64,000 nt of DNA, from positions 32,614,001-32,678,000 of the forward strand of contig CM097885.1 in the NCBI GenBank assembly GCA_044892525.1, written 5' to 3'. This document shows positions 32,428 through 64,000 of the stretch, piece after piece. This DNA is from Schmidtea polychroa (taxonomy: Eukaryota). Position numbers and translations under genes: made by a program. Under the pieces are notes generated by a model. That model saw only the letters and a program-made list of their open reading frames with translations, did no database searches and was not told the DNA's origin. Numbering within the stretch: the stretch's first letter is position 1; every line of letters begins with the position of its first letter.

Positions 32428-33666
32428 TGCATAGGATCTGGCCAATTAATCACAATGAATTATGAGTTTCTGCCCTCTGTAGATGTTTTTATGTAATATA
32501 ATTTGATTGTTTTTAATGTTCATCATAGGTTATTAATATATTATATCAAGTTGCGAATTTATTGTAACATTGATACATTAATAGGAATTTCCAGTATGAA
32601 TAAGTGAATTTCGTTACGTTTAATGTGGTATTTATATCTTTATTTATTGTTTATTTATTTTTAAAGTTTATATGTCCAATTATTGTTAAAGTTCAGTTAA
32701 AAATTAATGCAAATTATTAAAGAGTGAATTTTTTTCCATTTATTTTCACTGAGTCGGACAATTGTGTAATGAGCGCTTAAAATATTTATTCTTTAATTTA
32801 AACTTAGTTTCAATTTGGTAGCTCAAATACAAATAAATTGAATCAGTTTTCAATTATCAGCTTTAGTCTATCATTTTTCTGTGATTTCAAATAAGAATTG
32901 AACGGATTGTAATGAATATTTTTAGTTTACTCAAACCCCTATGGGTTCTGACAAACATTAAAAGATTGAATCTTTGATTTTAAAATTTGTCTTGATTTGT
33001 ATCTTGAGATTATAATATTATATATTTACAATTTATATGGACATTCTTTTTAATAGCATCATCTTCGTCTTTTCTTGAGAACATTATCCACAGCATTGCT
33101 ATACTGTAGCACTGCTTTTTTAACAGTCATAATTATCTGCCAATTTGCAATTTTATTTTATTTTAATTTTATGAAAACATTTGGATCATCTGTAATATGG
33201 AAATATTTTATGAAAGGAAGTATTACAGTTAAATTCTTTTTAATATATTTTAAAATTAATATAAATATATTATTGTCATATTATTTTTCATATATTTTGA
33301 TAAACATATCGTTATTAAAAGTGAATTATGAAAGTAACTCAGTGTTTGTCTACAATTAGTAACTTATTGATAGAATATTGAGTCACATTGGCGTATCAAA
33401 TGTTAAAGGGTTAAAAGGATGAAAGGTATTTTTAAAATGTATGTTGATGAATGTTGTAAAAATGGTTGTGGCGGGAACAGTTCGGGATCATTCTTTTTTA
33501 AATAGTTGATTTGATTGATAAATATGATAATATAGTTCATGATTAAATAACACATATTTTTATAAAATATTTCATAGGAAGAAAATTAGAGTTGATCCAA
33601 AGATATTTTATTGTTTTAATTTTCAACTTGTAAATCACATTTTGATATTTCGTTTATATTCATTAT

Positions 33667-43693: not shown

Positions 43694-45619
43694 TATGCTA
43701 TCCTTACGTATTCATTTCCCGCCAAAATTGAATACTTTAATTTTTTCAAATTTTTATAAGATTTTGGAATTTTATCGATTTCCATATTTAACTTTTTACA
43801 CGTCCAAATATCTTACGCGCTACTTTAGACGAACCCAAACAAGTAAAAATGATGAGTTCACTACAAATAAGTCCCATAAATCCTTCCTTGTCCTCAAGTA
43901 CTCGTATCTGAGTCAAATCGAAAACACAAGCAATATTAAGAACAAAATGAAATAGTACCTCCATAATAATTATTTTCTAAATTTTAGAATAGATCATTGA
44001 AAATTAATCAGTAAAAAATGTTTATTTATTATTTATAAGAGGCCCAATGCTAAATTTGCTGCGGTCCCATCTTAGTGTCAAAAGACTCGCATACTTAGTA
44101 TTAATATTCTACAGTTTTGATTTTACTATTAGTTATTTATATTAAAGCATTTATTTATTTTTGTATTTTTTATTAATGACTGTTGGGCTAGAACTGATTT
44201 CTAGACCCAAACTACTAATTGTGACTGAAACGTGCAGGTACACAACATGTAAAAAGCAAAAAGTATAGTTAAATATTAAAACCTACACCAAATAAACAAT
44301 ATTAACTAAAGGAGAAAGCAACAAAAACATAAACAAAGAAATTAAATAAAATTATACAGAAGCAAGAAGTGATGCAAAAATCTAACTCAAAAATAACCAA
44401 ACAAACATAGAATTACCAAAAGCAAACTCGAATAACTTAAAAGACGATAAAAATAGTAAAACATTCCAGAAAGACCCAGAACATTCTATAAAATGGCGAT
44501 GACCATCACAAAAGTCATCTAGAACAACAAAAGTTAAGGAAAATAAATGAATTAGTATTAAAAATAAAAAATCTCAAAAAGAAATTCATAAAAACATCAG
44601 TTAAAAATAAAAATTAAATTAAAAGTAAAATAGAATGTTCTGGAACCGTTCCAAATCCATCATGGACGTAAAGTAATGAAAAAATAATTAAAAAATAAAA
44701 ATTTAAAAATAAAAACAAAAATTATAGCACAAAAATTTCCACAAAAAATATAAAAATCATGAAATAGAAAATTCTGGAATAAAAAGAATTCGAGTTTGTT
44801 TTAACGCATCAATACATACACGTGTACAAAATAGGTATATATACTGACACGTTTCAGGCACATTAAGCATTATTTTGTTTATGCCAATATTTTATTAGAA
44901 ATTTTCCGAAAATTATTAGTAAGTAGATTTTTCTTTTGTTATTCGATGTTATCATGATTAATGTAACTATTTTAATGTAGATTAATATCCATAAGATCAA
45001 TTTCTTTTTATTTTTTATCTTTTATTAAAAATTTTTGTTTGAATACGACTGATCAGCGGCGTCTCAGTGCGTCTCTGTTCAGTCCTGCATTTGATATTAA
45101 CAATTTTTGAAACATGCAGACATGCCATATTCTATATATATATTTTTTTTTGTTTGGTCATCGGAGGTCGGCCACTTCATGGTTCTACCATGGAGTTGTG
45201 TCGATAAAACCCCTCCGCTATGGCTCTATATGCTTTATTTATCGGTCGACAGTGATGTTTCGACTCAACACAACAGTAGGGCTTGTCGTAGCGGTCACAG
45301 TGGGGCCGTGTAAGCAAGCATTCTTCCCGAGTACAAGCAAACATATTTAATTTCAACATTAAAAATCGTAGACAATAGGGTACACTAAGGTCATAATCGA
45401 GTAGATCTCAGACCCAAATTGAACACAGCAATTACAATTCAGCTAATGTAGTCGGTTAAGACCTCTCCACTTACACGTTTGTCGAACCTCATTGAGAAAT
45501 AATTTTTCGTATCAGTGTAAATGTCTCTCTCGAAATTGACCGTAATGATGCTCACGAAGGAGTTCGACAAGCGTGAATCGTAAAATGAACTATATACTCT
45601 CCTGTTACACTTAAACATC

Positions 45620-46860
45620 AGGCTATAAATGTATAATGTTCCTAAACTATAGAATATATGTTAGAATTGCTAAATACTTAGAATTCCTAAATGGTAAAAC
45701 ATAACTTACTACCGTACTTAGAATTATATGTGATAAATACGTAATACCTCTAAATTACAAATATGAGTTAATATTGTCTTCAAAAATATAATTTATAAAA
45801 GTTAAATTGTCAAATACCTCTTAATACTATGCCTGAAAATAATGCGGAATATTCATAAATTATAAAATTTTACTTTATACTATCCTCAAAATTATAATCT
45901 ATAAATGTGTAAAACATAATTTATAAATATGAAATTATAATATACATGCTTGAAAAGCAATTTTAAAAATGTGTAATATTCCTAAATTATGAAATTTTAC
46001 CCTATATTATTCTTAAAATTATAACTTATACCTGTGTAAAAATATAATTTATAAATGTCAAATTGTAAAATATAACCTAGTACTATGCTTGGAGGTATAA
46101 TTTATTATGAAATATAACCTATTTCTATACTTAAAAATATAAGTTAAAAAGGTACGTAAATAATTTTTATTGTACCTAAAAATATGATTTATAAATATGT
46201 AATATTACTAAATCATAAGATTGTATTGCTTGTGGTTCGTAAATCTTACCTTGAGATTATCAGTAGCAAACTAAAATGTAAACTCATACTACGTATAAAT
46301 TATAAATTATATCTTAGTATTTTCTGTATAAAAGTATAAAGTCATGCTACTCATAAAGTACAAATTATGTCTTAGAATTATACACAAAAATATAAACTAT
46401 AGGTTTATATTGCCCATCAATTATAGAATGTAACGTATGCATAGAATGCAAATTACAAACTATAAGGTATGATTTTGGTTATAAGTTATAATTTCGGTAT
46501 CCATAAATACAAATTATAAATTCCAAAGAATAGAAACTATAACTAGCTATATATAGCTCATGAGTCCGTAAAGTGTAAATTGCAAGGCTGAAGTGTGGAT
46601 TATGGAATAATTATATAAAGTATAAACCGTAGATTATTTTTATAAAAGTATAATCTAATTATATGTCTAAATTATAAAATTATATATCAAAATTATCTAT
46701 CTAAAAATTATATATCTAAATTACACCTCTAAATTATATATCTAAATTATATAAACTTATAAAATACCATCGTAAATTTAGATTACCAATTATAAACTAT
46801 GATTTCATACTCCATATAAGGTAAAGGACCAAATTCTGAATTCTAAGTTTATATTTCGTA
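45620..46860. repeat. Degenerate AT-rich repeat region inside the LTR
   Basis: Many variants of CTAAATTATA / AAATTATAAA units. Confidence 0.5.
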
Positions 46861-47739
46861 TATAATTGATGAATGACGAATGTATAAAATGTACAGTTGC
46901 GTATGCGAAATTAGCTAGGTTATAATTAACCCCTACGCCAAAATCATGGAGTACAATGACAAACATAAAGGAGAAGCACGCCCGACCTCTAGATCGGAAA
47001 CCGCAGTGAAGCTTGACGGTAATTTAATTAAAACTAATTTAACATCCAGTCGAAAGAGAGAATAATATTTAACATTTATTTTACAACATCAAGGTTCTAG
47101 TGGGCTGAACCAGGATTGCCGAGAGAAGTTCATTGTGGGCTGGAGTCTTGCATACTCCAGCTGTTCCCGCTCGTTGCTGGGAATTGCAAATAGGATTGAC
47201 AGTTGCGGATAATTCCTGAACTTTACGAATCTACTAATTTTAAATTTACAGTCTAACTTACTTCGAAGGATCCAGATGAATTGCAACACAGAAGGGAATG
47301 AATCTAAAAATCTAATATACCAAAATAAACTAAATTTATCAGAAAAAAGTTTTTAAATATTTAAAAGCCTTATAATTACATGTATTTAAAATTTACTATT
47401 CAAAACCATTGTAGTTTACTTTAAATTTGACCTTATTATGATTGTTACGATAAAACACCGTAAAATATGATTAATTGGTAATTTCCGCGTAAGGTAAATT
47501 TTAATGTATAGTGAAAGACTTGAATTTTAATTTAAGCAAAAGTTGAGGGTACCCTTTCAAGTACAATTTAAGTTAATCTGATTAATTGTTTAAATTATGA
47601 ACATTTGGAGTTTGTTTCATATTTTAAGCAAATTTTTTTGTTGTGTGTGGTTTCATATTAGCCCGCGAGCGTTGTAGCAGAGAGAAGCGTTCTCGTTTGC
47701 ATTGTGATAACCTTATTAATCATTGCTACCCAAACAGAT

Positions 47740-48105
47740 ATGTCACACTCAGACGACTACAGCGATGATGACGGCTACAGACAAATGATCACCCGGCTCC
47801 GGTCCCGGTACGTCTGGTTTCACATCCATCGGTGGAGCCAGGGACGGGACTTAGATTGTTCCAACCAAGTAATCCGGACGGGCCCCGAAGTGGATGCCCC
47901 GGCGTGGGTAAAAGTAGAGCCCACCAACAACGTGCTCCGGGAAGCCCGCGATCGAGCGGCCGATGAGGTGGTGGAGGCCCAAAAGCGGCTGAGGAGACTC
48001 GAGCTCCAACTCAAAGCCGAAACACTGGGGGTAACTCTTGAAGAGCTGGAGGAGACCGACACCCCTCCACGAAAACGGGGAAGGCCCCGCAAGAACCTGG
48101 CCTGA
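47740..48105 (+). CDS. LTR-encoded small protein with a coiled coil and C-terminal AT-hook
   Basis: GC-rich coding island; ATG at 47740 in frame with the track ORF; ends PPRKRGRPRKNLA. Confidence 0.6.
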   Translation: MSHSDDYSDDDGYRQMITRLRSRYVWFHIHRWSQGRDLDCSNQVIRTGPEVDAPAWVKVEPTNNVLREARDRAADEVVEAQKRLRRLELQLKAETLGVTLEELEETDTPPRKRGRPRKNLA

Positions 48106-48418
48106 CTCATCGACAGGCGCGGCTTGAATGGAATGGTTTTGACTGATTTCATCCAGTGATATTTTACCTTGTAGTAGCATGACGAATTGTATTTTTCTTT
48201 TGTTCGTTAAATCTTGACAATATAGTCTATCGTGTATCTTCGTAGTGCAATAAATTAATTTTTGTTTCGCTATTACATTTTGAACTTTATAGCTAATGGG
48301 GTGTATTCATGATTGAGGTGCCCCTTTTCTCATCACCCACTTATTAATTTCATGCACGTACTCTAACCAACTTTGCGCACCTGGATGCGAGCGATGGAAT
48401 TTATTATTATTTTCTTCA

Positions 48419-48853
48419 GTGTACCAGTTATTGGAAAACCTACGAAAGGACCGCGAACAGGCCCAGCAACAATCCGAGGGTCTCCGAGGTCGGGTCGAAA
48501 AACTCAAGCTGAAGTATCGAGAACTCCAAAGTACGTGGTTCAGTCCGGCCGACATGAAAAAACAAACTACGCGCATCTCACAACTCCAGACCCAGGCGGA
48601 GCAAGATCAGCTCGAGATCCGAGCGCTGAAGCTACAAGTGCGCTCGCTCGAGAGTAAATTGAACGAAAGGATTGTCCAGGACACCCTTTGCGAGCAGATT
48701 CGTCCTCTTGCCGTAGAGTTGGCCCGGATATACCCACCGGCCCAGACGAACAAGCCGAAACGCAAACGGTTAGGGCGGAACACCCGAGAGAAATTGAAAA
48801 GGGCCTGGCTGGCCGAGCAGGAGAAAGGGAAAGAGCCGGAAGGCAATCCATGA
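48419..48853 (+). CDS. LTR-encoded coiled-coil protein with a basic NLS-like tail (probably a spliced 3' exon)
   Basis: GC-rich, heptad-rich ORF with KPKRKR. It has no leading ATG and begins at a TTTTCTTCAG acceptor. Confidence 0.5.
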   Translation: MYQLLENLRKDREQAQQQSEGLRGRVEKLKLKYRELQSTWFSPADMKKQTTRISQLQTQAEQDQLEIRALKLQVRSLESKLNERIVQDTLCEQIRPLAVELARIYPPAQTNKPKRKRLGRNTREKLKRAWLAEQEKGKEPEGNP

Positions 48854-49235
48854 TCTTGGGAGGCGTTCGAGAGTGCGTGAACAATCCGTGTAATATGGTG
48901 GTGGCTTAATAAATGAGTCTTGTTATTTAATGAGTATGAGAGTGAACTTTGCTGTTGTCAAAAACAGGATGGTTGGCGGGAAGGCGCTTGGAAAAACAAT
49001 CTCGATGAGGGACCGAAATAAATCGGACACGTGCCTTCTATCGGCGTCCGTGAACCCATAGAGTGCTCGACAATTACAGTGCTTGGCGCGCTCACTTTTT
49101 GCGAGTACTCAACCCCTTGGTACAGTACCAACGTTGATTGCTCAACGGGTACCAAGAGGAAAACAATGTTGTATTCTGGGTTACGCTGGTAACAGCACTT
49201 AAACATTCAACCACCAGTAACCCACCATACAAATT

Positions 49236-49258
49236 TGGGGGCTCAGTCGGGATTTGAA
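49236..49258 (+). other. Primer-binding site, tRNA-Pro
   Basis: TGGGGGCTCAGTCGGGATTTGAA versus the canonical tRNA-Pro complement TGGGGGCTCGTCCGGGATTTGAA; lies directly after ...CA. Confidence 0.85.
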
Positions 49259-49951
49259 AATTTAATTGGTGAAAGAACCCGAGAATAGATATAATAGAGA
49301 GAGTAAAAGCGGATATAAAGTGATATGCATTCAAGACCGAGCAGGTTGTTTTCCCAAGCGCTTAAACTTAGTATATGGATATGCGAATATGATAAAATGT
49401 ATGTAGAATGTCTAAATGAGTGATGGAAGTTTTAAAGTATGACGACATATGAATGTATTGAAAGTGGGTATGAGAATGCTGTACGAATAACTTAGTAATA
49501 GAATGAATGAGGATAAACGAAAATTAAAACGAAAACAAATTATAATAAAATTGTAAATATCAACGATTAATAAAATGTAAATATAAGGAAATAATAAAAA
49601 TTTAAAAATAGGGAAAAGGGGGGATAGCACGCTAATAAAGATAGAACAAATGAACAATGAAATTAAACTTAATCAGAAAACGTGTAAAATATGGCGATAA
49701 GGAATGGGATATGGGTTATATATAATTAAAACGATTGTAATAAAATCACAAGATCATGAAAGAAATGTGCGCGGAATAGAGCATTAAACAGAGGGAGACG
49801 GGGTTGTTAAGGGTAATAAGTAGAATGTAAAGGTTTATCGAAGCACTAATAAAATAAAGTATTCTGGATATTAGGGGGAAAAACGATAAAAGGGGAAAAA
49901 TGACGCGGAATATTAATAAAAAGAGAACTTTAATTAATAAATCTTAATTAG

Positions 49952-50434
49952 ATGGAATCAACCGGCTACATTACAAAGAGACTCGAAAAATTCGTAGATT
50001 TAACACACAATTCGTTACAACGGCTGAATCGCAAAGCGGACCAGTTAATAAAAATCCAAGATGAGATGAGCTTGAATCCAAGACCGCAAGCTGAGGAAAT
50101 ATGTGTAATGATGAAAATAGCGACACCTAATGCAGAATTGACCACTAAAAGAGTTTATCAACTTCAAAATTTACGATTAGATAATGCCAAATTTAACATC
50201 AAATGGCAGGAGATAATGATAAAAATGGAAACGATCGAGGAAGAAATTAAAGAAGCAATCGAACATCAAGTTAAAGATTTTAGAAAATGCTTCATATGCA
50301 GAACCAATGAAATACGAGTAATGACGATTCCATGTGGTCATTTATGCTACTGCGAGAATTGCGCAGAGAAAATTAAACGATGCAACGTATGCGATACGAA
50401 TGTTAGAGAGAAAATTGTAATATACCTCCCATAA
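49952..50434 (+). CDS. Coiled-coil plus IAP-type C-terminal RING finger protein (putative E3 ligase)
   Basis: CFICRTNEIRVMTIPCGHLCYCENCAEKIKRCNVC...IYLP matches the IAP/MDM2-like terminal RING layout. No BIR domain. Confidence 0.8.
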   Translation: MESTGYITKRLEKFVDLTHNSLQRLNRKADQLIKIQDEMSLNPRPQAEEICVMMKIATPNAELTTKRVYQLQNLRLDNAKFNIKWQEIMIKMETIEEEIKEAIEHQVKDFRKCFICRTNEIRVMTIPCGHLCYCENCAEKIKRCNVCDTNVREKIVIYLP

Positions 50435-51059
50435 GGAGATGTTGTCAAATAAATTTCTTGTGAATGAATATGAAGTGATAAAATTAGTAAATTATATTAA
50501 AAATCCATTATAGCAACCGAAAGGTGTAAAACATACGATGAACATAGACATATAAAGGACACAAAATACGTTAAATAAATAGACAAGCAACACAGCAATT
50601 AGAACTAAAATCAAAGTTGAATGCAGGACTGATCATAGTCGTATGAATGAGCTGATCGCTAAGATCAGTACGATTTTTATTTCCAATTTTCTTTTCTTCC
50701 TGTTTGTTATTTTGGCATAAAGAGATACGAGAATGAGGGGATGACAAGTGAATCGTCCTTACGACACTTGCCCGGATGGGGAAATCCTGATCACCCTGAT
50801 GAGAGAATGTAGTAGGATCCATCGCAAATGTTGGGGAGTTTCTGTCCAGTGACTGATCACCACTTGTGGGAAACGAACCAACGCGATTATTATATTTTTT
50901 GTCTGGGAGACGGGGACTAACTAAAAGGGTGAATAAAAATAGAAAAATAAAATAAAAATTGAAAAACGCGCGCTAAATGTTAAAAATTTAATCCGAGAGC
51001 AGCTGCGGATTTGAAGAAACCGTTTTTGGACTTCAAATCAGATGAGAATAATGATTTTT

Positions 51060-52180
51060 CCCTAGCGAGTGATGAGGCACCCGAGTACAGCGGCTAACCA
51101 CCGGACTGTAGTGTCCAGGAGATTATCAGCCAAGGGACTGATGATGCTGGATCACCCAATACAAAAACCCGGATGCCACACCGAGTATTGGGCGCACTTT
51201 TTTGAGTTGCTAGCGGGACTTGATACAAAAACCCGGAAGGGTAGCGAGCGAGAGAGACCCAGTTACCTACACCGAGTATCAAGGAGCCCAGTGAAACGGT
51301 TGTGAGATGCGAGTCAACCGGTAAAGGACTCGTACTCAACAGGCAACCAAGATTGGACCAGTTGTGAGGCGGGAGACCGAGAGTCAACTGCATACCCAAT
51401 TTCCTTTTAGCTTCACTAGTCGGGAGATCTGGTTCATCACTTTTGAGAATCACGATCAAGGCGATTAGGCATTTCCGTGTTTTTTAAATCCTGATAGATA
51501 GGATGTTTTTTCTTCGTGATTATTGCTAGCAGGGGTCGGTACAAAACCCGGATGCCCACACCGAGTACCGATAGGCCCAGTGAAACGGCGATGAGATTAG
51601 AGTTACCGGTATTAGACTCTTTTCAATAAGCGGCCAAGAATTGAGCCAGTTGTGAGGCCTCAGCAGATTAAGAGTTTGAGTAGGAGGAGCCTCGAATTTT
51701 TGATTAGCCCGAAAGTCAACTGTCAACTCAATTTAATCGCGGTAGGGACGATAGTAGGTGTTAAAACCGAAGGCGTCTGGGGGTTGAAGAAACCTCATTT
51801 AGGGCATTTGAAACCGGTCAGGGACCGAAGACCGCGAATACGGCGTAATGGTGTAAAAGCCCAGGCGTCTAGGAGTCGTAAAAGACTTCAATTTTGATTA
51901 AACCGGCCGGAAGCCGATGCCGACGCGGAGGTCTAACAAACCAAAGCGTTGATGGGTAATAGTAGATTATATGGCGTAATGGTGTAAAAGCCCAGGCGTC
52001 TAGGAGTCGTAAAAGACTTCATGAGATTAAAATGAGTTGATTAAACCGGCCAAGGAGCCGATGGTAATTGAGTGAAATGATTTAAATGAAAATAAAGGAG
52101 TTGAACAAACCGGCCAGAGAGCCGATGGTAAATAAAGGTGGATGTAGAGGTCGCGCGAACCAAAGCATCAATGATTAACT
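51060..52180 (+). ncRNA. Array of repeated structured RNA modules in the retroelement leader
   Basis: Repeated hairpin motifs with compensatory stem changes (see findings), and an exact 49-bp repeat at 51842-51890 and 51973-52021. Confidence 0.6.
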
Positions 52181-53112
52181 ATGAAATTGATTAAACTGAA
52201 ATAGATTAAGTGCGATAAATATATAATGAGTAGAGGAGAATTATGATAAAGCGCCGGCGCAAGCGAAAATTAAACCAGTTTTTGGATGGGGAAAAGCGAA
52301 CGAATAGATAGTAGTTGAATTATTGAATTTTATTTATTAATGATATGTTTATTTTGATATTTATGTGATTAATATTATATTTCTAGGATAATTATAAAAG
52401 GGATAGATAATTGATACGAATATATAGATAATTGATACGAGTTATAGATAATTTAAAATCAACTTAAAATCAAAATGGGGCGAATAGCGAGAAGTGTAGA
52501 AAAGCTAGAAAATTTGAAGCGAAGGGACAGTAAAATAAAGGGAAAAAGGAAAGTAAATGAAGGGTTTAATAAAGAGAATTTATGATATGTACTAGAGGTG
52601 TTAATTATTTTAGAATAAAGCAAACAATTCAGAAAGAAATCAAAGAAATCAAGAAAGCAATAGAAATCAAGAGATATAGAGAAATCAATTAGAAGCGAAG
52701 AATCAAGGAAATTAATAAAACCAAATCCAAGAAGAGTTAGAGAATCGTAAAGATTAAAGCGAGAAAAATACTTAGAAAACATCGAGCTCGATTGACAAAG
52801 TAGAAAATTTATCAAAGGATATTAAAAGGAGGAAAAATTGATAGCATAGCTAACCGAACGAGGCGAAAAAGTAAAGGAAACCTCAGTTTATTGGAAAAGG
52901 AAGAGATACAAAAGGCCAAGACCAACAGAAAACTACACAGGAAGCCAGCATCAGTAGAAACAGTATTTGAATCAGACAGTTTAACAAACGAATTTGAGAA
53001 CAGCGACGATCTTAAACGAACCGAACTAGATCCGATAAGTGACATTGAATCATCAGACGAGGAAGGAAATAGTTCAGAGTCAACCAATATAACAATTTTG
53101 TGTCAAGAAATA

Positions 53113-56100
53113 ATGACAGACGGAATTCCAAATGTAACAGGGCTAACGGACCCACCGGAAACAAGTAATGTGCACGTCAACATTGGAGAATTCAGAGAGA
53201 AATTTCGAGGAGAGCCATTCGATGGAAATATAAACCAGCTGGAAACGTTTATAAAGGAATTCGAAGTATACATTACGATATGTCACTGGCCAGATATAGT
53301 CGTACGAGAACGAATACCCCTATATCTAAAGGGAAGCGCCCAAGATGTATACTTGGAGGCGAAATGTGATGCAACAAAGTTGAGAACGTGGAAAGAGATC
53401 AAGGAGTTTTTAATAAAAACATTCGGTACCGAAAAAGAGGGAAATCGAAAAATGTTAGACTTTCTGCATCGAAAGCAGAAATATAACGAATCCAACGCAC
53501 TGTACGCATGCGAATTGAGACGACTAGCACGAGAAGCCTTCGATTCAAATCAACCAGTTCCGGAAGACAAAATAATAGCCGTATTCGTAGATGGCATGAA
53601 ACGGGAGGATATACGAGCAACTTTGGGATGCCGAGCACCAGAGACGCTGGAAGAAGCACTAAAAATAGCTAACAAATGTGAAACTTACCTAACACCAATA
53701 CAAGTAGCAGCAATGACAGCAGCCCCAGCAGCTCCAGCAACAACAGCAACAACCACAAACAACCAAGTCAATAATGCAAATCCAGTAATGAATCAATTCA
53801 TCCCAGGATCGCAACAGTTGTTCAAAACTCCACAAACAAGAAACCAAAACAATGGAGGTAATATTCAAAATTTTACTAATAATTTCAGGAACAACGACAT
53901 CAACAATCGAACGTGCAACATATGCCAACGACCAGGGCATTGGAGCAATGAATGTTATAAAGCAAGGATGTGTCAAAAGTGTGGGAGAAGAGGCCACACG
54001 GAAAATGTCTGCAGAGGACCCATGATGTCTATGAGCAGAGGAGGAACCAGAACCTGCTACAATTGTAATCAGCCTGGACACATGGCAAGAGAATGCACGA
54101 TGAGAACCAAACCAAATCAACCAGGATCAAACAATCCAGTTCAGAACACACAAATCAACCTCATGCAGGAAATCGAACAATTAAAAGATATGATCCTGCG
54201 AATACCGACTAATAACCAACAACAACGAATCAACATGATGCAGAGCACCGAGGAAATCCGGAACCAACCAAGTAAGCAACAACAAGATCAGCAACGAGTC
54301 GAATGGCAAAGATTACAAAACGAGGAAGCCAGAGAAATTCAAGAAAGATGGAAACAACGGGAAGCGAATCCCGGAAGAATAAATATGATGAGATTAACAA
54401 ATAAAGAGGAATCGCACACTGCGGAGCAGTGTGTTAACAACGACGGGAGTGAACCGATAATAAACAAGGAGATAAAAACGACAAAAGAAAATGAGATTGA
54501 TCCACGAACAGAATTGAGCAGTGAAGAGAAAATACAATTGATTAAAGAATTTACCAAAGAGGAGAAAGAAAGGAGACAAAAGAGAAATGAGAGTAAAGAC
54601 GAACCAAAAAGCAATGAGATAATTACAAAAAATCGAATTCAGAGGGTACTACTACAAAAAATCGAAGACAGAATCAAAAACGAAAACCCTACATTAACTG
54701 AGGAACAAATAAAAGAAAAAGTGAAAGAGCATTGGTTTAGGAAAAATGAGTGGTTTGAAAAGAAGGAACCACATACCAAAGCTAAAATAAACATGCTGAG
54801 ACAAATGCGGAGCGATCAGACGGATCAGGAAGATGAGAAAAGTGAGGTGAGTAGCCTGGGAGGCGAATTATTTCAGTCAAGTGAGGAAAATAACGAACCG
54901 AAAACACCTCCAAACAGTGAAACACCTCAAAGTAGTGAGGAGAGTGAAAATGATGACATGAAATCAATGATAGAAAAAGATGAAGAAGAGATATTCGAGG
55001 AAATTCTCGACACAGTAACAGAAATAGAGCGAAATGAGAGCTACATCAACGAGTTAACATACAGAAAATGCTTAAAACTTATAACTCAAGTATACCAGTG
55101 TGAAGGAGGTATAATAACGGCAGCATGGAAAGATTTAGCAACAAAATATAAAGAGAAACTAAAGGAAGCAGGCCCAGATCAATATCAAGTAAGTATTCAA
55201 CACCCCGAGATTCAGATACAGACTATTGAATTAAAAGGAACAAATACCGATGAACTGTACAACTGGGTACAGGAAAAAATGGGAACGAGCCATAAAAATA
55301 AACAATTATATGTCGATGGTTACAAAGTTAAAATGGGCATACATTTGGTAGATGCGATGATATGGCCAAACGAAACTAACATCTTAACCTTAGAGAAAAC
55401 CAGAGATGACGACTCGGTAGCAGAGATGTTCAAGAAAATCCAACAAGTGTTTAACAATGAAGTGGAACCAGAATTGGAAAAGATCGAACGAAAAATAATG
55501 AAAGAAAATCAAATAATCTTAGTCAAACAAGCTATCGATCAGACAAGGAAATACATTAATAGACTGAGAGAAAGATGGCCACAACTAATGAAACAATTCG
55601 TTAAAGACGTACGAGACACGGAAATTATGAGATTTGAAGATGAACGAGCGACAGAATTGATATCCAAATACGGAGAATACGAGAGAACCAAATGCGAACA
55701 AGAAACGATAAAATTAAAAGTGAAGTTGCCAAATGAAGAGAAACAAATAATAGAAGTTAACCCCGATTGCCAAGTTGACGAGTTGGTACAAATCATAGAT
55801 CAAGAAATCATCCAAAAAGCTCGAGAAAATAGTGAGGATGGAATGATCGAAGATGTGATAATAATGTACAACATGCACATGCTAGAAAGAGGAGACCGAA
55901 CTGTAATTTACGAACTAGGAATCTGGGAAGATGGAGCCGTCATCAATATAATCGCGATGGATGAACCATCTGGTGGGCACAAAAACGCCACGAAAACCGA
56001 GCAACAAATTAAAAGATTCCAATGGGGAATGAGAGCAAAGATGGATCGAATAATAGATATTTATAACCATTGGCTAAAGGATGATAAACTAAAACTAGCA

Positions 56101-59100
56101 GCCTTCAATGACGAAGATTGCAAACTGATACCATGGAAAAAAGTGTGGATCGAAAGTGAAGCTCGATGGGATTGGGAGCAGCAAAAGTTGGAACCAAATT
56201 GGATAGATAATATACCCGAAGAGATCGCAGCAGTATGGGTAAGAGAGAAACCGATCGATACTTACCAGGATATATTACCACAAGAATTCCAAAATGAATT
56301 ACCATCAGGAGAAGATGAGGAGATACGAGAACCGGTAAAGTTAGCACCATTCACGTGGAAAATTGAGAATTGGATGGAAAAGATAAAATCAGCAAAGGAA
56401 GAGAAAATCACACGATTAGTAAGTCCACCGTTCTACTCAGGATTAGGTGAGTACAAGATGAAATTGCGAATATACCCGAACGGAGACGGGATAGGTAAAG
56501 GAAGTTATGTGTCGGCATTCTTCGTCATCTGCAAAGGAAATTATGACGACAAGGTACCATGGCCGTTTAGCAGAAAAGTGACGATAGCAATCGAACCATT
56601 GAAAGATAGCCTTAACGTACATAAAGAAATAATGAAACCAGATCCAAGGAGCGCCTGCTATCAACGACCAACAACATCAGAAAATATCGCTTCTGGGACA
56701 CCTAAATTAATACGTCTAAGTTACATTGAGAATGAGCAGTCAAAATTTGTGAAAAACAATGCTATCCAGATCAGAGTAGAAGTTGAAACAGAACAAGAAA
56801 TGAACCAACGACTGAACATACCAGAAAATCAACCGAGAATCTGTATGATGAGGAGAAGAGTGCCTGATTCAGGACATCTACCAATAGACGCAGATGCAGA
56901 TGAGGAGGAAGCAGCAACATTGTTGGAAGCACAAAAATGTAAGGAGTTGATGGAGATATTACAAAACGGGGCGAAAAATCGTCGACGAGCGGTGGTAGAA
57001 CTAGCAAAATGGATAGCCGAATCATGCAAAAGGATTCAAAACCTACGAAAGATCGTTAAAGCGATTGAAGAATATCGACGGGTATACGTATGGTACCCTG
57101 AACAATTTGGTGAAATCATCCGGAAATGGAAACAACGAGAGTGGGCCGAAAACTCACCTGAGAAATATCAATTAAAAATATTCATGCCAGATTTTGAACC
57201 AATGGAAAAGGAATTCTATACGACAGCTAAAGTCAGAGAAGTTAAAAAGAGAATACCTTATGAACTCCCATTCCACTTACAACACGAGGGACGATCATTA
57301 GACGACGATATTGAGATCGGTGTGACACCACTCCAAGGAGAAATTGTGAACAGATTAACGGTGAGTAAAATTGCAGGTAGAGAGCTAAGGAGAGGAGAGA
57401 TAAAGCAAAAATCATCCACCCAACAACCAGGAAGTTTGGACACACCAGAAGTTCCAAATGCGGTTAGTGAAGTGACGATCGAAACAACGGGAGAAGACGA
57501 AATACTGGATGAATTACAAGAGATAGTAGAAGCAGGCGAGATTATGAGAGCATCGCAATCAGGAGATCTATTTATCGACGAAGGTGAACCGACAACTGAT
57601 GATTTAGATGGATTTGTATGCGCGCAGAGACAACCAGTGGAAACGACGGAAGCCGAGACGGATTTAGATAACGTGGAAAGAGGTGCCAATAAAGATGTAA
57701 CCACAACCGATGAATGGAGCAACTGGAGAGTAGATCCAGGAGCGACCACGTCAAAAGATACAACTTACAATCCGCCAAAACGGAAAGAAACCGGAACAGC
57801 TATGGATCGACGAACAAGAGGAAGACCAAAAACAGATAAAGCAGAGATCGAACCAAAATCCAAAGTTCAGGCGCAAATGGAACAGGTAAAAACTAAAATG
57901 GATAAACTAAGTGCATTAGTAAAACAAGTTAAAGTGAAGACAAGCGTCCGAGAACAAGGGACACGATGGATAAATGACCTATTAGCCAACATGTTAGCAT
58001 TAGCAAATCCAGATGTGAAAAGAGTAATGAGGAAGGATAATATTCCGACCGAAGCCAAACAATTATGGGCAGTATTGAAACCGATAATAATGAAAATCAT
58101 GGATAATAAAATTCGATTAACGTTAAAAGATCCCGTGGAACTCAGATTAATTGTGGAACATCTATTAAGCAGATCAGAGGACCAAAATCGATTTTTAGTG
58201 GGATTAGCATATTTAGTATATAACGTTATCGGTCAATATAAAAAACGAATGCCAAAATATAACGCAACGGGTTACGAATTCACAGTAACAGAAATAATTA
58301 AACGATCAATAGAACCATATATACTTGAACAAGGGGGATGGAGAAGCTTCATCGAATCAACTGGGAAGAAAGATCAAACGGAAATGATGCAAGCAAAGTT
58401 ACGCGATTTGCTAACTGAATTCGAAGGAACAATCAATATAAACGACCCAAGAGCAAGTCGAAAGGGAATGAATGCCATAATAACCACGATATTGATATGG
58501 ATGATGTGTATCAAAGGAACGGAGTCATTTGCAGTATACGACTGCGACAACATAAAAATCCATGAGAAATATTCATTAAAGGATACGGAAGACTGTAAAG
58601 CGGCAAACCCAAGAAAATTACAAACAGTCATGGCATCAGTCTCGTACAACGTATATCAAGAAGCAGATTTCATCAAAACTATGGTCCAAGAGTGTACGAT
58701 AACCAGAAAGATATTCGCACATCACTGCGGTTCATCCTCACACTCAACAATCATAGAACCAGGATTGGAATCGACAGTAATATTACTATCAAGAGAGGAA
58801 TGCGAGGAAGGGTTCCGATCAGGGAGAATCCACTTAAGGCAAGGGATTGAAATCGCTGCAGAACCAGGAAAAATAAAAACGACTCGCGTATATACGGCGG
58901 GCAGAATCACTAAAGGAGACGGAACATGTGAGACAGGAACATACACCTTGAACGGACAACTGGTTAGTGGAGTGGTCGTAATAGAAAGTTACGAAGCTAA
59001 ATTGGAAAAGTATCAAGGCTACTTTGACCCTGACACGCAAGCAATGAAGAAATACCCAAGCTGTCTCGCATCAGATCGATCATGTTCAACCGGAATGTCA

Positions 59101-62100
59101 ACTCTGGTATACCACGCAGATCAGAAAGTATGTCGACTAATGTTACTCAAGACAGCAATATTCGAAGAAATCCAAGGGAAAGTGTACAGTGAACCAAAAG
59201 GAGAAGCAGAGAGACGAGCGATGGAAGAATTGAGAGCAAGGAAAGGATTCAGGGAAGACGTAATAACATCGAAATTGGAATCGGAAGTAACACCCACAGC
59301 GATAATCTCCAAAGACGATGGAATAGGAATGAGGTTCATAAAGAACAAAATGGTGAGTAAATGCGATGAGATGGTGATCAGCACCAATTATAAAGGGATC
59401 TACTTGTCGCGGAGAACCCTAGCAAATGCAGTCGGAAGACTAAGCGAAAAGGATGTCAAATTATATTTATACGCTAATAATAAGATGGATTTCTTATATC
59501 ACAGAGGATTAACATCTACGGAAAAAGTCTATCATGATCTGTTAAGAAACGATTGCCTGCTCAACAAAGAAATATTGAGAACAAAATTAGCAATGGCGAT
59601 TACAAATCCAGATAACGCAATTCCACTACTACCATTACAGGAAGGATATTTCGGACGAATCGTGGGCGAAGTGATGTACACCTACCAATGCAAAAAGATA
59701 ATGGCAAGATTGCCGGAAAACCCTACAATACCAAGGGATAAGTGTGCAAACGAACTCGAAATTATTCACGAAGGTAAACCCAGGTTTGTGCAAGCAGTCA
59801 CTAGGATAATGAACCCGGTAGGGTTTCAGCCAAATCTGTTTAATTGCAGTAATGCATATGGGCCAATGTATGAAAAAGAAGACGGACAATGGGTTCAATT
59901 TCCAAGTAAAACAATCGTAGTGACACCCAAGAAATTTGGATTGACGGAACTAACAACAGAATTAGAGTTCAAGCCGATAGACGTATCACAGAGTGGATTA
60001 TATACACCAAAAGATCTTGAATCAGCAAGGGCCCACATGTTATTCCCAGCACACAGACAAGCGATCCTATCAAATATAGTGACTATTTCTGGAGGAAATA
60101 ATTATGGGGAGAGCCCAAATTACGAGCTATTATTATCACCAAGTCACTATCAACAAGCAACAGCAAACATGATGAAGGCTATGTGGGGTCGATTTTTGGT
60201 ATTTGGCCAAATGATGGCAGGAATACTCGGAATTATTCTGATAATACAAATAGTCAGAGTAATACTAACCCAGATGCTAGCATGTTTTGACATCTATAAG
60301 CGCGAGAGAAAAGTAAATTGGAAACTTGCAATTGGATTCTTACCGTTCTTAGCGAAAACAATGGTGTTGCATGGACACTCAAAGGATATTCATCGAATAA
60401 AAAGATTGTTGAAAATACTAACGCAAATGAAAGGGACAGACGAAGAAGTCGGACGTAAGTTCAAAGTGATAATGAGATTAGAAGCAGAAAGAACTCAAGA
60501 GAAAGCAAAAAGAACCGGGAAGTGGAAAAAGTGGATGAACCTCAGGCGAGACGATGATAGTGACAACGACAATGATGATTTCGACGACGATGATAATAAC
60601 CAAGGAGGAGCAATGTTGATAAATAAAAATACAGCCACTTGGGAAAACGAAAAAATGAAACCATGGGGATCACCGTATTCACAGACCCCATATTTACAAG
60701 CACCAACTAATGGACCAATGCGACGACCAGGAACAATGAGAGAACGGATAAGAATGGGAACCGGGAGATTGCCCGTACCAAATATTTACCCAACGGCGTA
60801 TGAACCAAATTGGGCAGCAATGGACCCAACAATGATCAAGCCAATTAAAAATGTGGGGCAAGAGGTGGAAACACGAACGATTGCGGTATTGCAGACACCA
60901 GCAGGACCATCGTTAACTATCACGGTCGAAGTAAACGGAATAGAGATGGATGCAATGATTGATACCGGAGCAAATATCTCAGCAATAAATATGAATATGC
61001 TACCAGGAAGACTATGGCCATGCATTGAGGAAACAACCATGGATGTAATAACATGCAGCAAACAATCCATAGCGGTAGTAGGAAGAGTATGGTCAACGAT
61101 CGAATACAAAGGGGTTAAAGTTACAACGTACCTCGCAGTCATTAGACAGCTAAGCGTATCATGTATAATTGGAACAGATGTAATGCCGGAATTATTGAAA
61201 GAAATTGTGATTGATTTGAGTTCCATGAAATTAAAAGATAAAACTGGACAGATATGCACAATGAGAACAGAAGTGAGATGCTCCGAAAAAATGATAATAC
61301 CAGCACGTACCCAGACAATATGTTATGTCAAGGTCGATAACGAAGCCAAAGGAGATATGATATTCGAACCAAGTCAAAAATTTGAGAAGAGAAGAGAGCT
61401 ACCATTGGCAAGAGAGATCGTCAGTATAAATGAGGATAATGAGATACCCATCAACATCACCAATTTTGACGAAGAAGATAAAGTAATCTACGAAAACGAG
61501 AGACTTGGGAAACTCACACCAATGATGAACATCGAACTGCCGGAGTTAAAAAGCGAAGGAGCAGACGAAAAAGAATTGTGGACCATCGATAGCGAACTCC
61601 TAAATGAAGACGAAAAGGAACAACTCAGACAACTACTGATTGAGTTTAAAGATATTTTTGCGGCTTCAGATTTGGATTTGGGTACCAGCGATGTAACGCA
61701 ACACATTATACCATTAACGGATGAGACACCCATAACTTTGAGACCATATCGATTAGCCGAAGCACAGAAAACGGTAGCAGAGGAGGAAGTACATAAGATG
61801 TTAGATGCCGGAGTGATAGAACCTAGCTGTTCACCATGGCAATTTCCAGTGGTAATGGTCAAAAAGAAAGATGGCACACAGAGATTTTGTATCGATTATC
61901 GGAGGTTGAATGCAGTAACAAAAAGGGATACATACCCACTGCCAGATATTAACGAAATGTTACAGATGTTACATGGAGCAGCATACTTTACATCTTTAGA
62001 TCTAAAGAGCGGATACTGGCAAATTAAAGTTAAAGAGGAAGATAGAGAAAAGACAGCCTTTACCATCGGAAAAGATTTATATCAGTTTAAAAAGATGCCA

Positions 62101-64000
62101 TTCGGATTAACAAATGCACCTGCTTCGTTTCAAAGATGTATGAACTTTGTGACACACGGAATTAAACAATGTATGGTGTATATTGATGATCTGTTAATTT
62201 ATTCAGGTACTTTCGAGCAACACTTAATCGATATCAGAAACGTCTTCATAAGACTGAAACAATGGAAGCTGAAATTGAAACCGTCAAAATGCGATTGGGC
62301 AAAGGAGAGAGTCACGTTTTTAGGACATATTGTGTCGGCAAAAGGAAAGGAACCAGATCCGAGAAACGTTGAAAAGATAAAAAATTGCCCGATACCAAAG
62401 ACTGTGACTCAGGTACAAGAATTTCTGGGATTATGCGGATACTACCGCAAGTTCATCAAAAATTATGCAACTATAGCAAAACCAATTCAGGAACTAACGA
62501 AAAAAGACACCCCATTTTTGTGGGAAAGAGAACAGCAAATAGCATTCGAATCGTTAAGAGATAAACTAATAGCCTCACCTATTCTAATACACCCAGATTT
62601 TAAAAAGCCTTTTCTACTAGCAACCGATGCCAGTGGATATGCATCAGGAGCTGTGCTAGGACAATGGGATGAGGAGAAACGAGAAAGAGTCATCGGATAT
62701 TATAGCAAGACGTTCAAAAAGCACGAAAAGAATTACTCAGTCACAGAAAGAGAAGCCTTAGCAATAATTCAGGCGATAAAACATTTCAAATATTTATTGT
62801 GGGGACACGAGATAATTATTACTACAGACCATCAACCTCTAGTTTGGTTGGGCCAACACAAAGAAGCATCTAGTCGATTAATGAGATGGGCAATGCAGTT
62901 ACAAGAATATTCCCCATACATCAAATTCAAGTCAGGAAAAGCAAACGCAAATGCAGACTGCATGTCGAGATTTGTATTTGAGGAACTCATGGATCATGAC
63001 GTCAGACGAATATGCCTGATAATCGCGGAAGATATCGATTTTACCAATCTAAAGAACGAACAAAAGGAAGACAATGAATTAAAACTAATAATTGAGTTCC
63101 TGGAAAAAAACGATATGAAAATATTCAACAACGATGATCGACTAAAAGAACACATGGAGAAAAATCGTCACAGATATACGATCGAGAAAGGATGGCTATT
63201 GGTAATGGATGGCGACAAACGATTGATGTGTCTACCAGAAAGTAGACGGAAAGAAATTATGATTCAATACCACGATGGTAAATTGGGCGGACATATGTCA
63301 GCCAAGAAAACAGAAGCAAGGCTCAAACAGAAATATTACTGGCCAAATATGAGCGATGACGTGAAAGAATGGATAAAGAACTGCCTGATATGCGCAACCA
63401 GAAAAACAACGGGCAGTAAACTAAAGCCACCATTGAAACCAATGCCGATACCGCCAGAACCGATGACAATGATTGCAATGGATGTAGTTGGACCACTACC
63501 AGAGACTAACAGTGGAAATGTGTATATATTGGTAATAACTGATTATCTGACTAAGTTCCCTGAAGCATTTGCGATGCCAGACCAAAAAGCACGAACGGTT
63601 GCAAGGATATTAGTGGAAGAGATCTGCTGCAGATATGGAACACCAAAACAAATCTTAACTGACCAAGGAACTAATTTCATGAGCGAGATAATAAATGAAG
63701 TGACAAATTATTTTAGAATCGCCAAATTGAGAACCTCACCATACCACCCGCAAACGAATGGTCAGACAGAAAGATTTAACGGCATACTAATAGACATGAT
63801 GTCCAATTACGTGAGTAAACATCAAAAGGACTGGGATGAATATATTAAGTTGTGTCTAATGGCTTATCGAATGTCAATACACTCAGCAACGAAAATGAGT
63901 CCGTTTAAACTCATGTATGGAAGGGAATGCAACATGCCGATGGATCTCGAATACCAACCGCCAATCTCACAATATATGGAAATAGATGATTATGTGACAA
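53113..64000 (+). CDS. Giant Gag-accessory-Env-Pol polyprotein (>3600 aa, 3'-partial)
   Basis: Hand translation of frame 1 found no stop after TAG 52801; first ATG at 53113. Capsid ~53200-53690; CCHC knuckles at 53914, 53971, 54055; MATH 56350-56787; BH2-like YILEQGGWRSF at 58318; glycoprotein 58468-~60380; protease AMIDTGA (D at 60961); RT YIDD 62179; RNase H TDASG, TEREALA, TDHQPL; integrase HHCC from 63271, AMDVVGP, TDQG, HPQTNGQTER. Confidence 0.93.
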   Translation, partial: MTDGIPNVTGLTDPPETSNVHVNIGEFREKFRGEPFDGNINQLETFIKEFEVYITICHWPDIVVRERIPLYLKGSAQDVYLEAKCDATKLRTWKEIKEFLIKTFGTEKEGNRKMLDFLHRKQKYNESNALYACELRRLAREAFDSNQPVPEDKIIAVFVDGMKREDIRATLGCRAPETLEEALKIANKCETYLTPIQVAAMTAAPAAPATTATTTNNQVNNANPVMNQFIPGSQQLFKTPQTRNQNNGGNIQNFTNNFRNNDINNRTCNICQRPGHWSNECYKARMCQKCGRRGHTENVCRGPMMSMSRGGTRTCYNCNQPGHMARECTMRTKPNQPGSNNPVQNTQINLMQEIEQLKDMILRIPTNNQQQRINMMQSTEEIRNQPSKQQQDQQRVEWQRLQNEEAREIQERWKQREANPGRINMMRLTNKEESHTAEQCVNNDGSEPIINKEIKTTKENEIDPRTELSSEEKIQLIKEFTKEEKERRQKRNESKDEPKSNEIITKNRIQRVLLQKIEDRIKNENPTLTEEQIKEKVKEHWFRKNEWFEKKEPHTKAKINMLRQMRSDQTDQEDEKSEVSSLGGELFQSSEENNEPKTPPNSETPQSSEESENDDMKSMIEKDEEEIFEEILDTVTEIERNESYINELTYRKCLKLITQVYQCEGGIITAAWKDLATKYKEKLKEAGPDQYQVSIQHPEIQIQTIELKGTNTDELYNWVQEKMGTSHKNKQLYVDGYKVKMGIHLVDAMIWPNETNILTLEKTRDDDSVAEMFKKIQQVFNNEVEPELEKIERKIMKENQIILVKQAIDQTRKYINRLRERWPQLMKQFVKDVRDTEIMRFEDERATELISKYGEYERTKCEQETIKLKVKLPNEEKQIIEVNPDCQVDELVQIIDQEIIQKARENSEDGMIEDVIIMYNMHMLERGDRTVIYELGIWEDGAVINIIAMDEPSGGHKNATKTEQQIKRFQWGMRAKMDRIIDIYNHWLKDDKLKLAAFNDEDCKLIPWKKVWIESEARWDWEQQKLEPNWIDNIPEEIAAVWVREKPIDTYQDILPQEFQNELPSGEDEEIREPVKLAPFTWKIENWMEKIKSAKEEKITRLVSPPFYSGLGEYKMKLRIYPNGDGIGKGSYVSAFFVICKGNYDDKVPWPFSRKVTIAIEPLKDSLNVHKEIMKPDPRSACYQRPTTSENIASGTPKLIRLSYIENEQSKFVKNNAIQIRVEVETEQEMNQRLNIPENQPRICMMRRRVPDSGHLPIDADADEEEAATLLEAQKCKELMEILQNGAKNRRRAVVELAKWIAESCKRIQNLRKIVKAIEEYRRVYVWYPEQFGEIIRKWKQREWAENSPEKYQLKIFMPDFEPMEKEFYTTAKVREVKKRIPYELPFHLQHEGRSLDDDIEIGVTPLQGEIVNRLTVSKIAGRELRRGEIKQKSSTQQPGSLDTPEVPNAVSEVTIETTGEDEILDELQEIVEAGEIMRASQSGDLFIDEGEPTTDDLDGFVCAQRQPVETTEAETDLDNVERGANKDVTTTDEWSNWRVDPGATTSKDTTYNPPKRKETGTAMDRRTRGRPKTDKAEIEPKSKVQAQMEQVKTKMDKLSALVKQVKVKTSVREQGTRWINDLLANMLALANPDVKRVMRKDNIPTEAKQLWAVLKPIIMKIMDNKIRLTLKDPVELRLIVEHLLSRSEDQNRFLVGLAYLVYNVIGQYKKRMPKYNATGYEFTVTEIIKRSIEPYILEQGGWRSFIESTGKKDQTEMMQAKLRDLLTEFEGTININDPRASRKGMNAIITTILIWMMCIKGTESFAVYDCDNIKIHEKYSLKDTEDCKAANPRKLQTVMASVSYNVYQEADFIKTMVQECTITRKIFAHHCGSSSHSTIIEPGLESTVILLSREECEEGFRSGRIHLRQGIEIAAEPGKIKTTRVYTAGRITKGDGTCETGTYTLNGQLVSGVVVIESYEAKLEKYQGYFDPDTQAMKKYPSCLASDRSCSTGMSTLVYHADQKVCRLMLLKTAIFEEIQGKVYSEPKGEAERRAMEELRARKGFREDVITSKLESEVTPTAIISKDDGIGMRFIKNKMVSKCDEMVISTNYKGIYLSRRTLANAVGRLSEKDVKLYLYANNKMDFLYHRGLTSTEKVYHDLLRNDCLLNKEILRTKLAMAITNPDNAIPLLPLQEGYFGRIVGEVMYTYQCKKIMARLPENPTIPRDKCANELEIIHEGKPRFVQAVTRIMNPVGFQPNLFNCSNAYGPMYEKEDGQWVQFPSKTIVVTPKKFGLTELTTELEFKPIDVSQSGLYTPKDLESARAHMLFPAHRQAILSNIVTISGGNNYGESPNYELLLSPSHYQQATANMMKAMWGRFLVFGQMMAGILGIILIIQIVRVILTQMLACFDIYKRERKVNWKLAIGFLPFLAKTMVLHGHSKDIHRIKRLLKILTQMKGTDEEVGRKFKVIMRLEAERTQEKAKRTGKWKKWMNLRRDDDSDNDNDDFDDDDNNQGGAMLINKNTATWENEKMKPWGSPYSQTPYLQAPTNGPMRRPGTMRERIRMGTGRLPVPNIYPTAYEPNWAAMDPTMIKPIKNVGQEVETRTIAVLQTPAGPSLTITVEVNGIEMDAMIDTGANISAINMNMLPGRLWPCIEETTMDVITCSKQSIAVVGRVWSTIEYKGVKVTTYLAVIRQLSVSCIIGTDVMPELLKEIVIDLSSMKLKDKTGQICTMRTEVRCSEKMIIPARTQTICYVKVDNEAKGDMIFEPSQKFEKRRELPLAREIVSINEDNEIPINITNFDEEDKVIYENERLGKLTPMMNIELPELKSEGADEKELWTIDSELLNEDEKEQLRQLLIEFKDIFAASDLDLGTSDVTQHIIPLTDETPITLRPYRLAEAQKTVAEEEVHKMLDAGVIEPSCSPWQFPVVMVKKKDGTQRFCIDYRRLNAVTKRDTYPLPDINEMLQMLHGAAYFTSLDLKSGYWQIKVKEEDREKTAFTIGKDLYQFKKMPFGLTNAPASFQRCMNFVTHGIKQCMVYIDDLLIYSGTFEQHLIDIRNVFIRLKQWKLKLKPSKCDWAKERVTFLGHIVSAKGKEPDPRNVEKIKNCPIPKTVTQVQEFLGLCGYYRKFIKNYATIAKPIQELTKKDTPFLWEREQQIAFESLRDKLIASPILIHPDFKKPFLLATDASGYASGAVLGQWDEEKRERVIGYYSKTFKKHEKNYSVTEREALAIIQAIKHFKYLLWGHEIIITTDHQPLVWLGQHKEASSRLMRWAMQLQEYSPYIKFKSGKANANADCMSRFVFEELMDHDVRRICLIIAEDIDFTNLKNEQKEDNELKLIIEFLEKNDMKIFNNDDRLKEHMEKNRHRYTIEKGWLLVMDGDKRLMCLPESRRKEIMIQYHDGKLGGHMSAKKTEARLKQKYYWPNMSDDVKEWIKNCLICATRKTTGSKLKPPLKPMPIPPEPMTMIAMDVVGPLPETNSGNVYILVITDYLTKFPEAFAMPDQKARTVARILVEEICCRYGTPKQILTDQGTNFMSEIINEVTNYFRIAKLRTSPYHPQTNGQTERFNGILIDMMSNYVSKHQKDWDEYIKLCLMAYRMSIHSATKMSPFKLMYGRECNMPMDLEYQPPISQYMEIDDYVT

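Follow-up and report, generated by a model that had tools for sequence, protein, structure and literature searches.

The window, that is, the whole stretch of 64,000 nucleotides analysed here, contains, from position 44181 on, part of a 35.5-kb Burro-type Ty3/gypsy retrotransposon, the leader of which carries the RNA motifs described below. The element runs from window position 44181 to L032:5691 and is bounded, at the ends inspected, by a 4-bp target duplication, TGAC. Several hundred copies of it are present in the genome (G000). Its main features are:

44181..49227, + strand: 5' LTR, TG...CA, 5,047 bp, 99.94% match to the 3' LTR at L032:644-5691
49236..49254, + strand: primer-binding site, 8 nt past the LTR, recognised by sequence
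49952..50434, + strand: upstream RING-finger ORF, 160 aa (PF13920, E 3.4e-12)
52837..63999, continuing into L031, + strand: gag-MATH-env-PR-RT-RH-IN polyprotein ORF (Pfam), probable AUU start at 52837-52839

According to Pfam, the polyprotein contains zinc knuckles, a MATH domain, a Monjiviricetes-type fusion protein, PR, RT, RNase H, integrase and ankyrin repeats, with the fusion protein (env) placed between gag and protease. TRAF-like and BIR-RING ORFs lie 3' of it (Pfam); BIR and RING together form a separate downstream ORF, and the polyprotein has no Pfam Bcl-2 match. Burro/GYPSM1 of planarians are giant gypsy-like LTR retrotransposons (PMC6431247). In the available portion of that account, the features shared with the present element are a length above 30 kb with LTRs (long ones here, 5.05 kb), one polyprotein of ∼4,780 aa with CCHC knuckles, MATH and a fusion glycoprotein between gag and protease, the PR-RT-RH-IN series, ankyrin repeats, and BIR and RING in accessory ORFs; the same portion mentions tandem repeats and contains no leader RNA structure, AUU start or non-autonomous lineage (PMC6431247). 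The host element is Burro-type by layout and domain content, having been set beside Burro's description rather than its sequence. Burro1 is reported to be active in planarian stem cells and regeneration, as cited in the accessible part of PMC13465017.

Two ORFs with basic tails are found within the LTR (window 47662-48105 and 48317-48853). They are only 60-71% identical among the LTR types (L079, L125, L169-L198) found on the same internal family. Diverged LTR types run into the internal family of the host element at 7 of the 30 ends examined, and the joining of divergent LTR types to one internal family indicates that LTRs have been swapped among copies. The primer-binding site, which we take to be of the tRNA-Pro type, recurs behind 7 of 30 related LTR ends examined. 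A tRNA scan found no tRNA.

The polyprotein frame is open for 103 codons ahead of its first AUG. Similarity between lineages starts at a K-I-D triplet, whose middle codon (52837-52839) is AUU, with A at -3 and G at +4. This codon is AUU in 62 of the 68 loci listed and AUG in 6, which are non-autonomous copies. Judged from this conservation, gag probably starts at the AUU at 52837, in a strong context. A conserved splice acceptor just 5' of the gag-pol start was not found among the copies, and a candidate acceptor at 52386 was rejected, as its AG occurs in no copy but that of the window. In another gypsy family of the same genome the frame likewise opens, with a similar K-I-D, ahead of the first Met (L114:7394 onwards).

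Leader modules and their predicted folds

The earlier note had described a core (here module A) occurring three times in the leader, each time closed by a different but complementary stem, and the sequences and coordinates are exactly as claimed. The modules that it reported as shared after copies 2 and 3 are likewise present, at 51286-51333/51575-51620 (module B) and 51359-51390/51647-51722 (module C). Its delimitation of the region, 51155..51722, took in real modules but was too narrow, as the conserved block extends from ∼51041 to ∼52470 and includes a further module, D. The features of this part of the leader are:

51041..52470, + strand: block homogenised between autonomous and non-autonomous lineages, from site-by-site difference tallies
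51058..51218, + strand: predicted multi-stem domain around A copy 1, with 51058-51068 complementary to 51207-51218
51155..51192, + strand: module A copy 1, 8-bp closing stem CCCAATAC/GTATTGGG, A-rich internal loop, CGG/CCG stem, short variable tip
51219..51283, + strand: module A copy 2 with inserted hairpin, closing stem CTTGATAC/GTATCAAG
51286..51333, + strand: module B unit 1, predicted H-type pseudoknot, stem 1 51297-51302/51315-51320, stem 2 51310-51314/51328-51332
51352..51400 (core 51359-51390), + strand: module C unit 1, basal stem AUUGG/CCAAU, CAGUUG/CAACUG stem
51536..51571, + strand: module A copy 3, closing stem TCGGTAC/GTACCGA
51575..51620, + strand: module B unit 2, predicted pseudoknot, stem 2 with A-U where unit 1 has C-G
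51639..51733 (core 51647-51722), + strand: module C unit 2, long variable hairpin, 10-nt palindrome TGAGGCCTCA at 51653-51662
51755..52130, + strand: module D array, three full units and one partial, copy number differing among loci
52151..52260, + strand: GC-rich palindromes TCGCGCGA (52151) and GCGCCGGCGC (52251), retained in both lineages

Module B is laid out as stem 1 (CGG.../...CCG), a UGAGAU loop and stem 2, and in many copies an A-to-G change at one and the same pair in both units gives a G-U wobble. Unit 1 of module C has a UGAGG / A(A/G)AGU internal loop and a CGG/CCG tip, and the additional basal stem of the module shows two double changes. A kink-turn reading of C and a T-loop reading of B, judged against what we take to be the consensus of these motifs, were rejected, since neither fits both units. 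In the MFE fold, the multi-stem domain around A1 has a competing partner at 51524-51529. The D units, of which a pattern found 1 to 8 per locus, have covarying stems of their own (GUU/AAC versus GUC/GAC, CGGUC/GACCG versus CGGC/GCCG) and a GGCGUC tip. Nine instances of a small motif, AAA-(C)-CGG...CCG-purine, lie within the A, B and D units of 51150-52130, against a mean of 0.65 and a maximum of 4 in 500 shuffles.

Module A behaves as a portable module: the decayed locus L085 has an additional, fourth copy of it, closed by a stem of different sequence again and sitting on the end of a hairpin whose counterpart in the window is short, and A2 lacks the inserted hairpin in the old copy L088. Across 404 kb, a model of module A (R1) recovered nothing but the three A copies of each element and a weakly scoring hairpin in U5. 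This hairpin (49115-49157; E 0.07) has the closing stem CTTGGTAC/GTACCAAG, almost that of A2, and could pair with the A2 strands at long range. Upstream of the block, 50741-50890 is a second conserved structured stretch, with 0 near-fixed differences between lineages in 50841-50890 and 485 genomic matches to its core. A TATA-like TATAAAAG followed by three AGATAA repeats lies inside the leader at 52393-52460, and is a possible internal promoter or binding array.

The closing stem of module A was compared in six aligned copies, three from the window and three from two other loci: 46 of 47 cells are paired and 5 of 8 pairs have changed on both sides, while slid registers of the same stem, used as a control, are 27-40% paired. 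For modules B and C, four rows (two units in each of two lineages) gave 81 of 84 cells paired and 3 of 21 pairs changed on both sides; with only two independent units this covariation is suggestive and not a powered test, and, no divergent internal family having been found in this genome, module covariation overall rests on two to four paralogous units. For the 691-nt block, the folding z-score is -3.17 on the + strand versus -1.18 on the - strand (20 shuffles each), and single modules fold weakly alone (z -0.46 to -2.88, the latter for unit 1 of module C).

The short A core has 771 matches in the genome, about two per element, versus 0 for a reversed control, and the B core 586 versus 1. The match sites examined are copies of one element, so that these counts show a repeat family and not independent origins. 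Rfam 15 gave no credible match in window 49000-54000 (E <= 5) or at three other loci (E <= 1), in line with the statement of the earlier note that the fold matched no family known to it.

Two lineages and a shared leader block

Copies of the element fall into two lineages, between which the RING ORF is 74-75% identical. Two lineage-2 elements were followed in full. They are ∼16 kb long, have LTR pairs that are 99.8-100% identical over long stretches, except for one repeat tract in one of them, and lack window coordinates 55705-65386 (MATH, env, PR, RT, RH, IN) and most of the accessory region. The jump from 55704 to ∼65387 was found in 12 of 13 lineage-2 copies, the thirteenth stretch ending short of the junction, and all 7 of the other copies that cross this region do so uninterrupted. 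The remaining lineage-2 ORF has gag and zinc-knuckle matches; a domain search of it returned no PR, RT, RH, IN or env. In both of these elements the RING ORF is frameshifted with stops, and their LTRs have no match to the two basic-tailed LTR ORFs. The shared deletion of pol and env and the near-identical LTR pairs indicate that lineage 2 is non-autonomous and has been recently mobile. One ∼16-kb derivative extends from L141:1049 to L143:2058 (G000:C1:19484048-19505057 region) and another is found at L145-L147, which look like a tandem with a common LTR; in these derivatives gag is fused in frame to the C-terminal part of the polyprotein, without pol, env and accessory ORFs.

Lineage 2 is 66-86% identical to the window in gag, the 3' part of the ORF, U5 and the alignable parts of the LTR (gag 74-84%, U5 end 82%), versus 90-97% in three 500-nt bins over 50700-52200, with the leader block itself at 94-99%. 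Outside the D array, near-fixed differences were tallied site by site between 47 lineage-1 and 32 lineage-2 copies. Per 100 nt they number 18.8 in the RING ORF, 13.0 in 50435-50740, 9.3 in 50741-50990, 0.6 in 50991-51150 and 0.0 in 51151-51835, there being none in the whole of 51041-51835; they number 0-4 in 52075-52474 and 9-19 from 52475 on. The two lineage-1 and lineage-2 sets contain the full series of three A, two B and two C modules, by pattern, in 45 of 47 and 29 of 32 copies. These counts leave out L001 and L035 (duplicates), L068, L100 and L085 (rearranged, truncated and decayed, respectively) and a further 7 loci that are intermediate or truncated. Identity to the window was the basis for choosing 29 of the lineage-1 loci, and tandem duplicates are among the loci counted.

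Twenty sites within 50991-51835 vary in each of the two lineages, and the haplotypes are mosaic. These shared polymorphisms and mosaic haplotypes, which are concentrated in ∼51041-52470, imply that the block has been exchanged between the lineages and not only conserved. Its identity across lineages equals that within lineages, spacers included.

Variation among 82 copies, three of the 7 omitted intermediate or truncated loci having been restored for this set, bears on selection. Per 100 sites, variants present in at least two copies number 6.9 at paired positions, 4.8 in conserved loops and 16.1 in the rest; the corresponding values for single-copy variants, most of which date from after insertion, are 19.7, 9.5 and 15.5. 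The depletion of spreading variants in stems and conserved loops has a Fisher p of 0.005 (2+ copies) or 0.002 (5+ copies), in a test that is not blind, as the pair list was drawn after part of the variation was known, and in a sample that favours window-like copies. All 4 paired-site variants found in 16 or more copies give G-U wobbles. The pair is kept by 11 of 34 single-copy variants at paired sites, and 5 of the 11 shared variants at such sites break it (4 of them in 2-4 copies, one in 5). Covariation and this depletion together support the selected RNA fold claimed in the earlier note: the modules are real, selected RNA structure.

Function of the block

Structured leader signals are expected in LTR elements; in the Ty3/gypsy elements of invertebrates, the mapping of cis-acting RNA signals is poor. 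The block lies on the genomic strand, 3' of the primer-binding site (49236) and 5' of the probable gag start (52837). We put at about 0.5 the probability that this ∼1.4-kb block is a packaging and dimer-linkage signal, read by the proteins of the helper and homogenised by template switching. Of the three functions proposed earlier (IRES, packaging or dimerisation signal, ribozyme), it is the one that fits best. Within the genomic transcript the block would be read as RNA: Gag of the element would bind to its repeated stem-loops, and two genomic RNAs would pair at it. In heterodimers, reverse transcriptase would switch templates at the block and so bring about exchange between lineages, and the RNA of the non-autonomous lineage, which has no other supply of RT and integrase, would be packaged together with the polyprotein of the helper. 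Any sequence that is read by the proteins or RNA of the helper has to be retained in a dependent element; the U5/PBS region drifts by ∼18%, and the block does not. Several palindromes and the nine AAA-(C)-CGG...CCG motifs are to be expected if there are several binding sites. A scan of homodimer energies placed the strongest 60-nt windows at 52120-52280 and 52740-52840, not in modules A-C, and pointed to the two GC-rich palindromes (52151 and 52251) that lie towards the end of the block.

In the available parts of the sources, retroviral dimer-linkage and packaging regions are located between the PBS and gag, template switching in MuLV clusters at palindrome-mediated RNA-RNA contacts (PMC5874298), and recombination requires co-packaging and is stimulated by hairpins (PMC5086612). 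SL-A to SL-D of the gammaretrovirus MuLV are, like the block, situated between the PBS and gag and comprise several stem-loops and palindromes; the MuLV dimer-linkage region is also, as far as the same excerpt goes, a preferential site of template switching (PMC5874298), and exchange is centred on the block here. Compared with what is described there, the block is ∼1.4 kb and not 170 nt long, has repeated modules and two predicted pseudoknots, and shows no sequence or Rfam similarity, with a putative function; GACG tetraloops, the gammaretroviral core signal, were absent from the modelled stems. VL30-type elements, which use a helper's particles, resemble lineage 2 in being mobile without pol and env, and rat VL30 keeps a small dimerisation and packaging signal 3' of its 5' LTR, to judge from the portion of PMC4859993 at hand. 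Unlike VL30 as presented there, the dependent lineage derives from its helper, keeps a gag ORF and has the leader block near letter-for-letter (PMC4859993). A natural pair of helper and dependent element marks out, to ∼1.4 kb, the one internal region unable to diverge, and the selection, pairing or export of a 30-kb retroelement RNA becomes testable on short RNA fragments.

Some points go against the packaging reading. With the RING ORF in between, the block is 1.8-3.2 kb away from the PBS, farther than textbook packaging signals are. The exchange could be DNA-level conversion between genomic copies, or could follow from high identity. An export element would be kept equally well by the non-autonomous lineage, and a nuclear-export or other post-transcriptional element for the unspliced 30-kb RNA (CTE-, MTE- or RRE-like), read by a host factor or an LTR-encoded basic protein, is an alternative that we consider unlikely though not negligible. 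An AG stands directly 5' of the RING ATG in the window and in 43 of 43 matched sites (of 47 lineage-1 copies), which would be in line with leader splicing, and an unspliced RNA would then need an export signal. Loss of both basic-tailed ORFs from the non-autonomous LTRs would lock that lineage to the helper's binding site. In its repeated internal loops and pseudoknot the predicted fold resembles those of export elements (CTE, MTE, RRE); the MusD transport element, other retroviral export elements and the Ty1 leader pseudoknot are compact cis-acting pseudoknotted RNAs of LTR retrotransposons, as here, in the accessible part of PMC5767303. Relative to the MusD element and Ty1 as covered there, the block has no sequence similarity, its layout is one of repeated modules, and its export role is putative (PMC5767303). 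However, export alone does not predict exchange confined to the block, the basic-tailed LTR ORFs diverge to 60-71% identity among LTR types whereas the block barely varies, and Rfam holds no match. A more specific version, which we regard as speculative and rather improbable, is that the modular array, with ∼ten AAA-CGG...CCG copies and two pseudoknots, is a platform for an LTR-encoded basic protein, a Rev/RRE-like switch in an invertebrate Ty3/gypsy element, hijacked by a non-autonomous lineage that continually re-copies the helper's block. The packaging and export functions are not mutually exclusive.

Another reading, improbable in our view, is that the block is an array whose repeats stay similar through gene conversion or recent recombination, and whose folds are either incidental or work at the DNA level (as an enhancer). 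Recombination alone would suffice for an identity that is the same across as within lineages, D units vary freely in number, and the folding z-scores of single modules are modest. Yet the closing stems of the A copies differ and stay complementary, C-G is replaced by A-U in the pseudoknot, and the basal stem of C has its two double changes; moreover, spreading variants are depleted in stems and loops while single-copy ones are not, and the + strand folds better than the - strand.

Slightly more doubtful still is a role as an IRES or shunt, by which ribosomes would reach the gag-pol ORF past the LTR and RING ORFs. Such a device would be needed in principle, because 94 AUGs lie between the end of the LTR and the first in-frame AUG, and the probable AUU start in strong context, the missing conserved acceptor just 5' of the ORF and the retention of the gag ORF in the non-autonomous lineage are all compatible with it. 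This candidate of the earlier note is weakened by distance: 1,115 nt separate the last module C from the AUU, 11 AUGs fall in 52181-52833, and the final 360 nt ahead of the AUU have diverged between lineages (9-19 differences per 100). In the intergenic IRES type, with a pseudoknot at the start, the structure abuts the first codon and the start is non-AUG; here the start is non-AUG too, but the block does not abut the first codon (11 or more AUGs intervene). The K-I-D gypsy family at L114 opens similarly with a leader of ∼200 nt and without modules A-C.

A new self-cleaving ribozyme, or an exonuclease-resistant RNA yielding a subgenomic RNA, is highly improbable and gained no positive support: catalytic and nuclease-blocking RNAs are built, as the block appears to be, from invariant loops in covarying stems with variable inserts at the tips and a pseudoknot, and the UGAG.../...CGAAA of module C resembles one half of what we take to be the hammerhead consensus, but no Rfam ribozyme matched at E <= 5, the hammerhead core (CUGANGA + GAAA + UH in a three-way junction) was not found in 50400-52300, where two CUGANGA matches lack the following GAAA arm and the - strand has none, and efficient cleavage within the genomic RNA would destroy the template. 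Known LTR-element ribozymes sit in the LTRs of retrozymes, according to the part of PMC6765202 available.

Occurrence elsewhere

The host element is of a known kind; the modules have no Rfam family and were not found in the other gypsy families examined in this genome, in viral contigs or in metagenomes. An exclusion pattern for diverged internal families gave 18 genomic matches versus 27 for the control, which is chance level, and two of the 18 were copies of the family itself. No A-module match was found in the stretches examined of an env-bearing (3,334-aa frame) and a Bcl-2-bearing (3,053-aa frame) family, and a genomic search for BIR returned mostly frames of the host family's size. Viral contigs had 0 matches to the A and B patterns, and metagenomes 0 to the gag protein and 0 to an upstream motif. 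In the literature covered, which did not include Grohme 2018, the Repbase entries and the 2026 Burro1 paper, no Burro leader structure or non-autonomous Burro was found.

Some other repeats were recorded in passing. One abundant family, distinct from the host element and represented by L071, L073, L079 and L083, encodes a Monjiviricetes-type fusion protein within a frame of 3,334 aa (2,581 first-look domain candidates). A gypsy family represented by L114-L127 is likewise distinct; its frame of ∼3,050 aa includes a Bcl-2-like domain, and the leader that follows its PBS is short. Within the window itself, 22241-32428 holds a 4.2-kb inverted repeat of 99% identity with a palindromic centre, which is unrelated to the leader modules.
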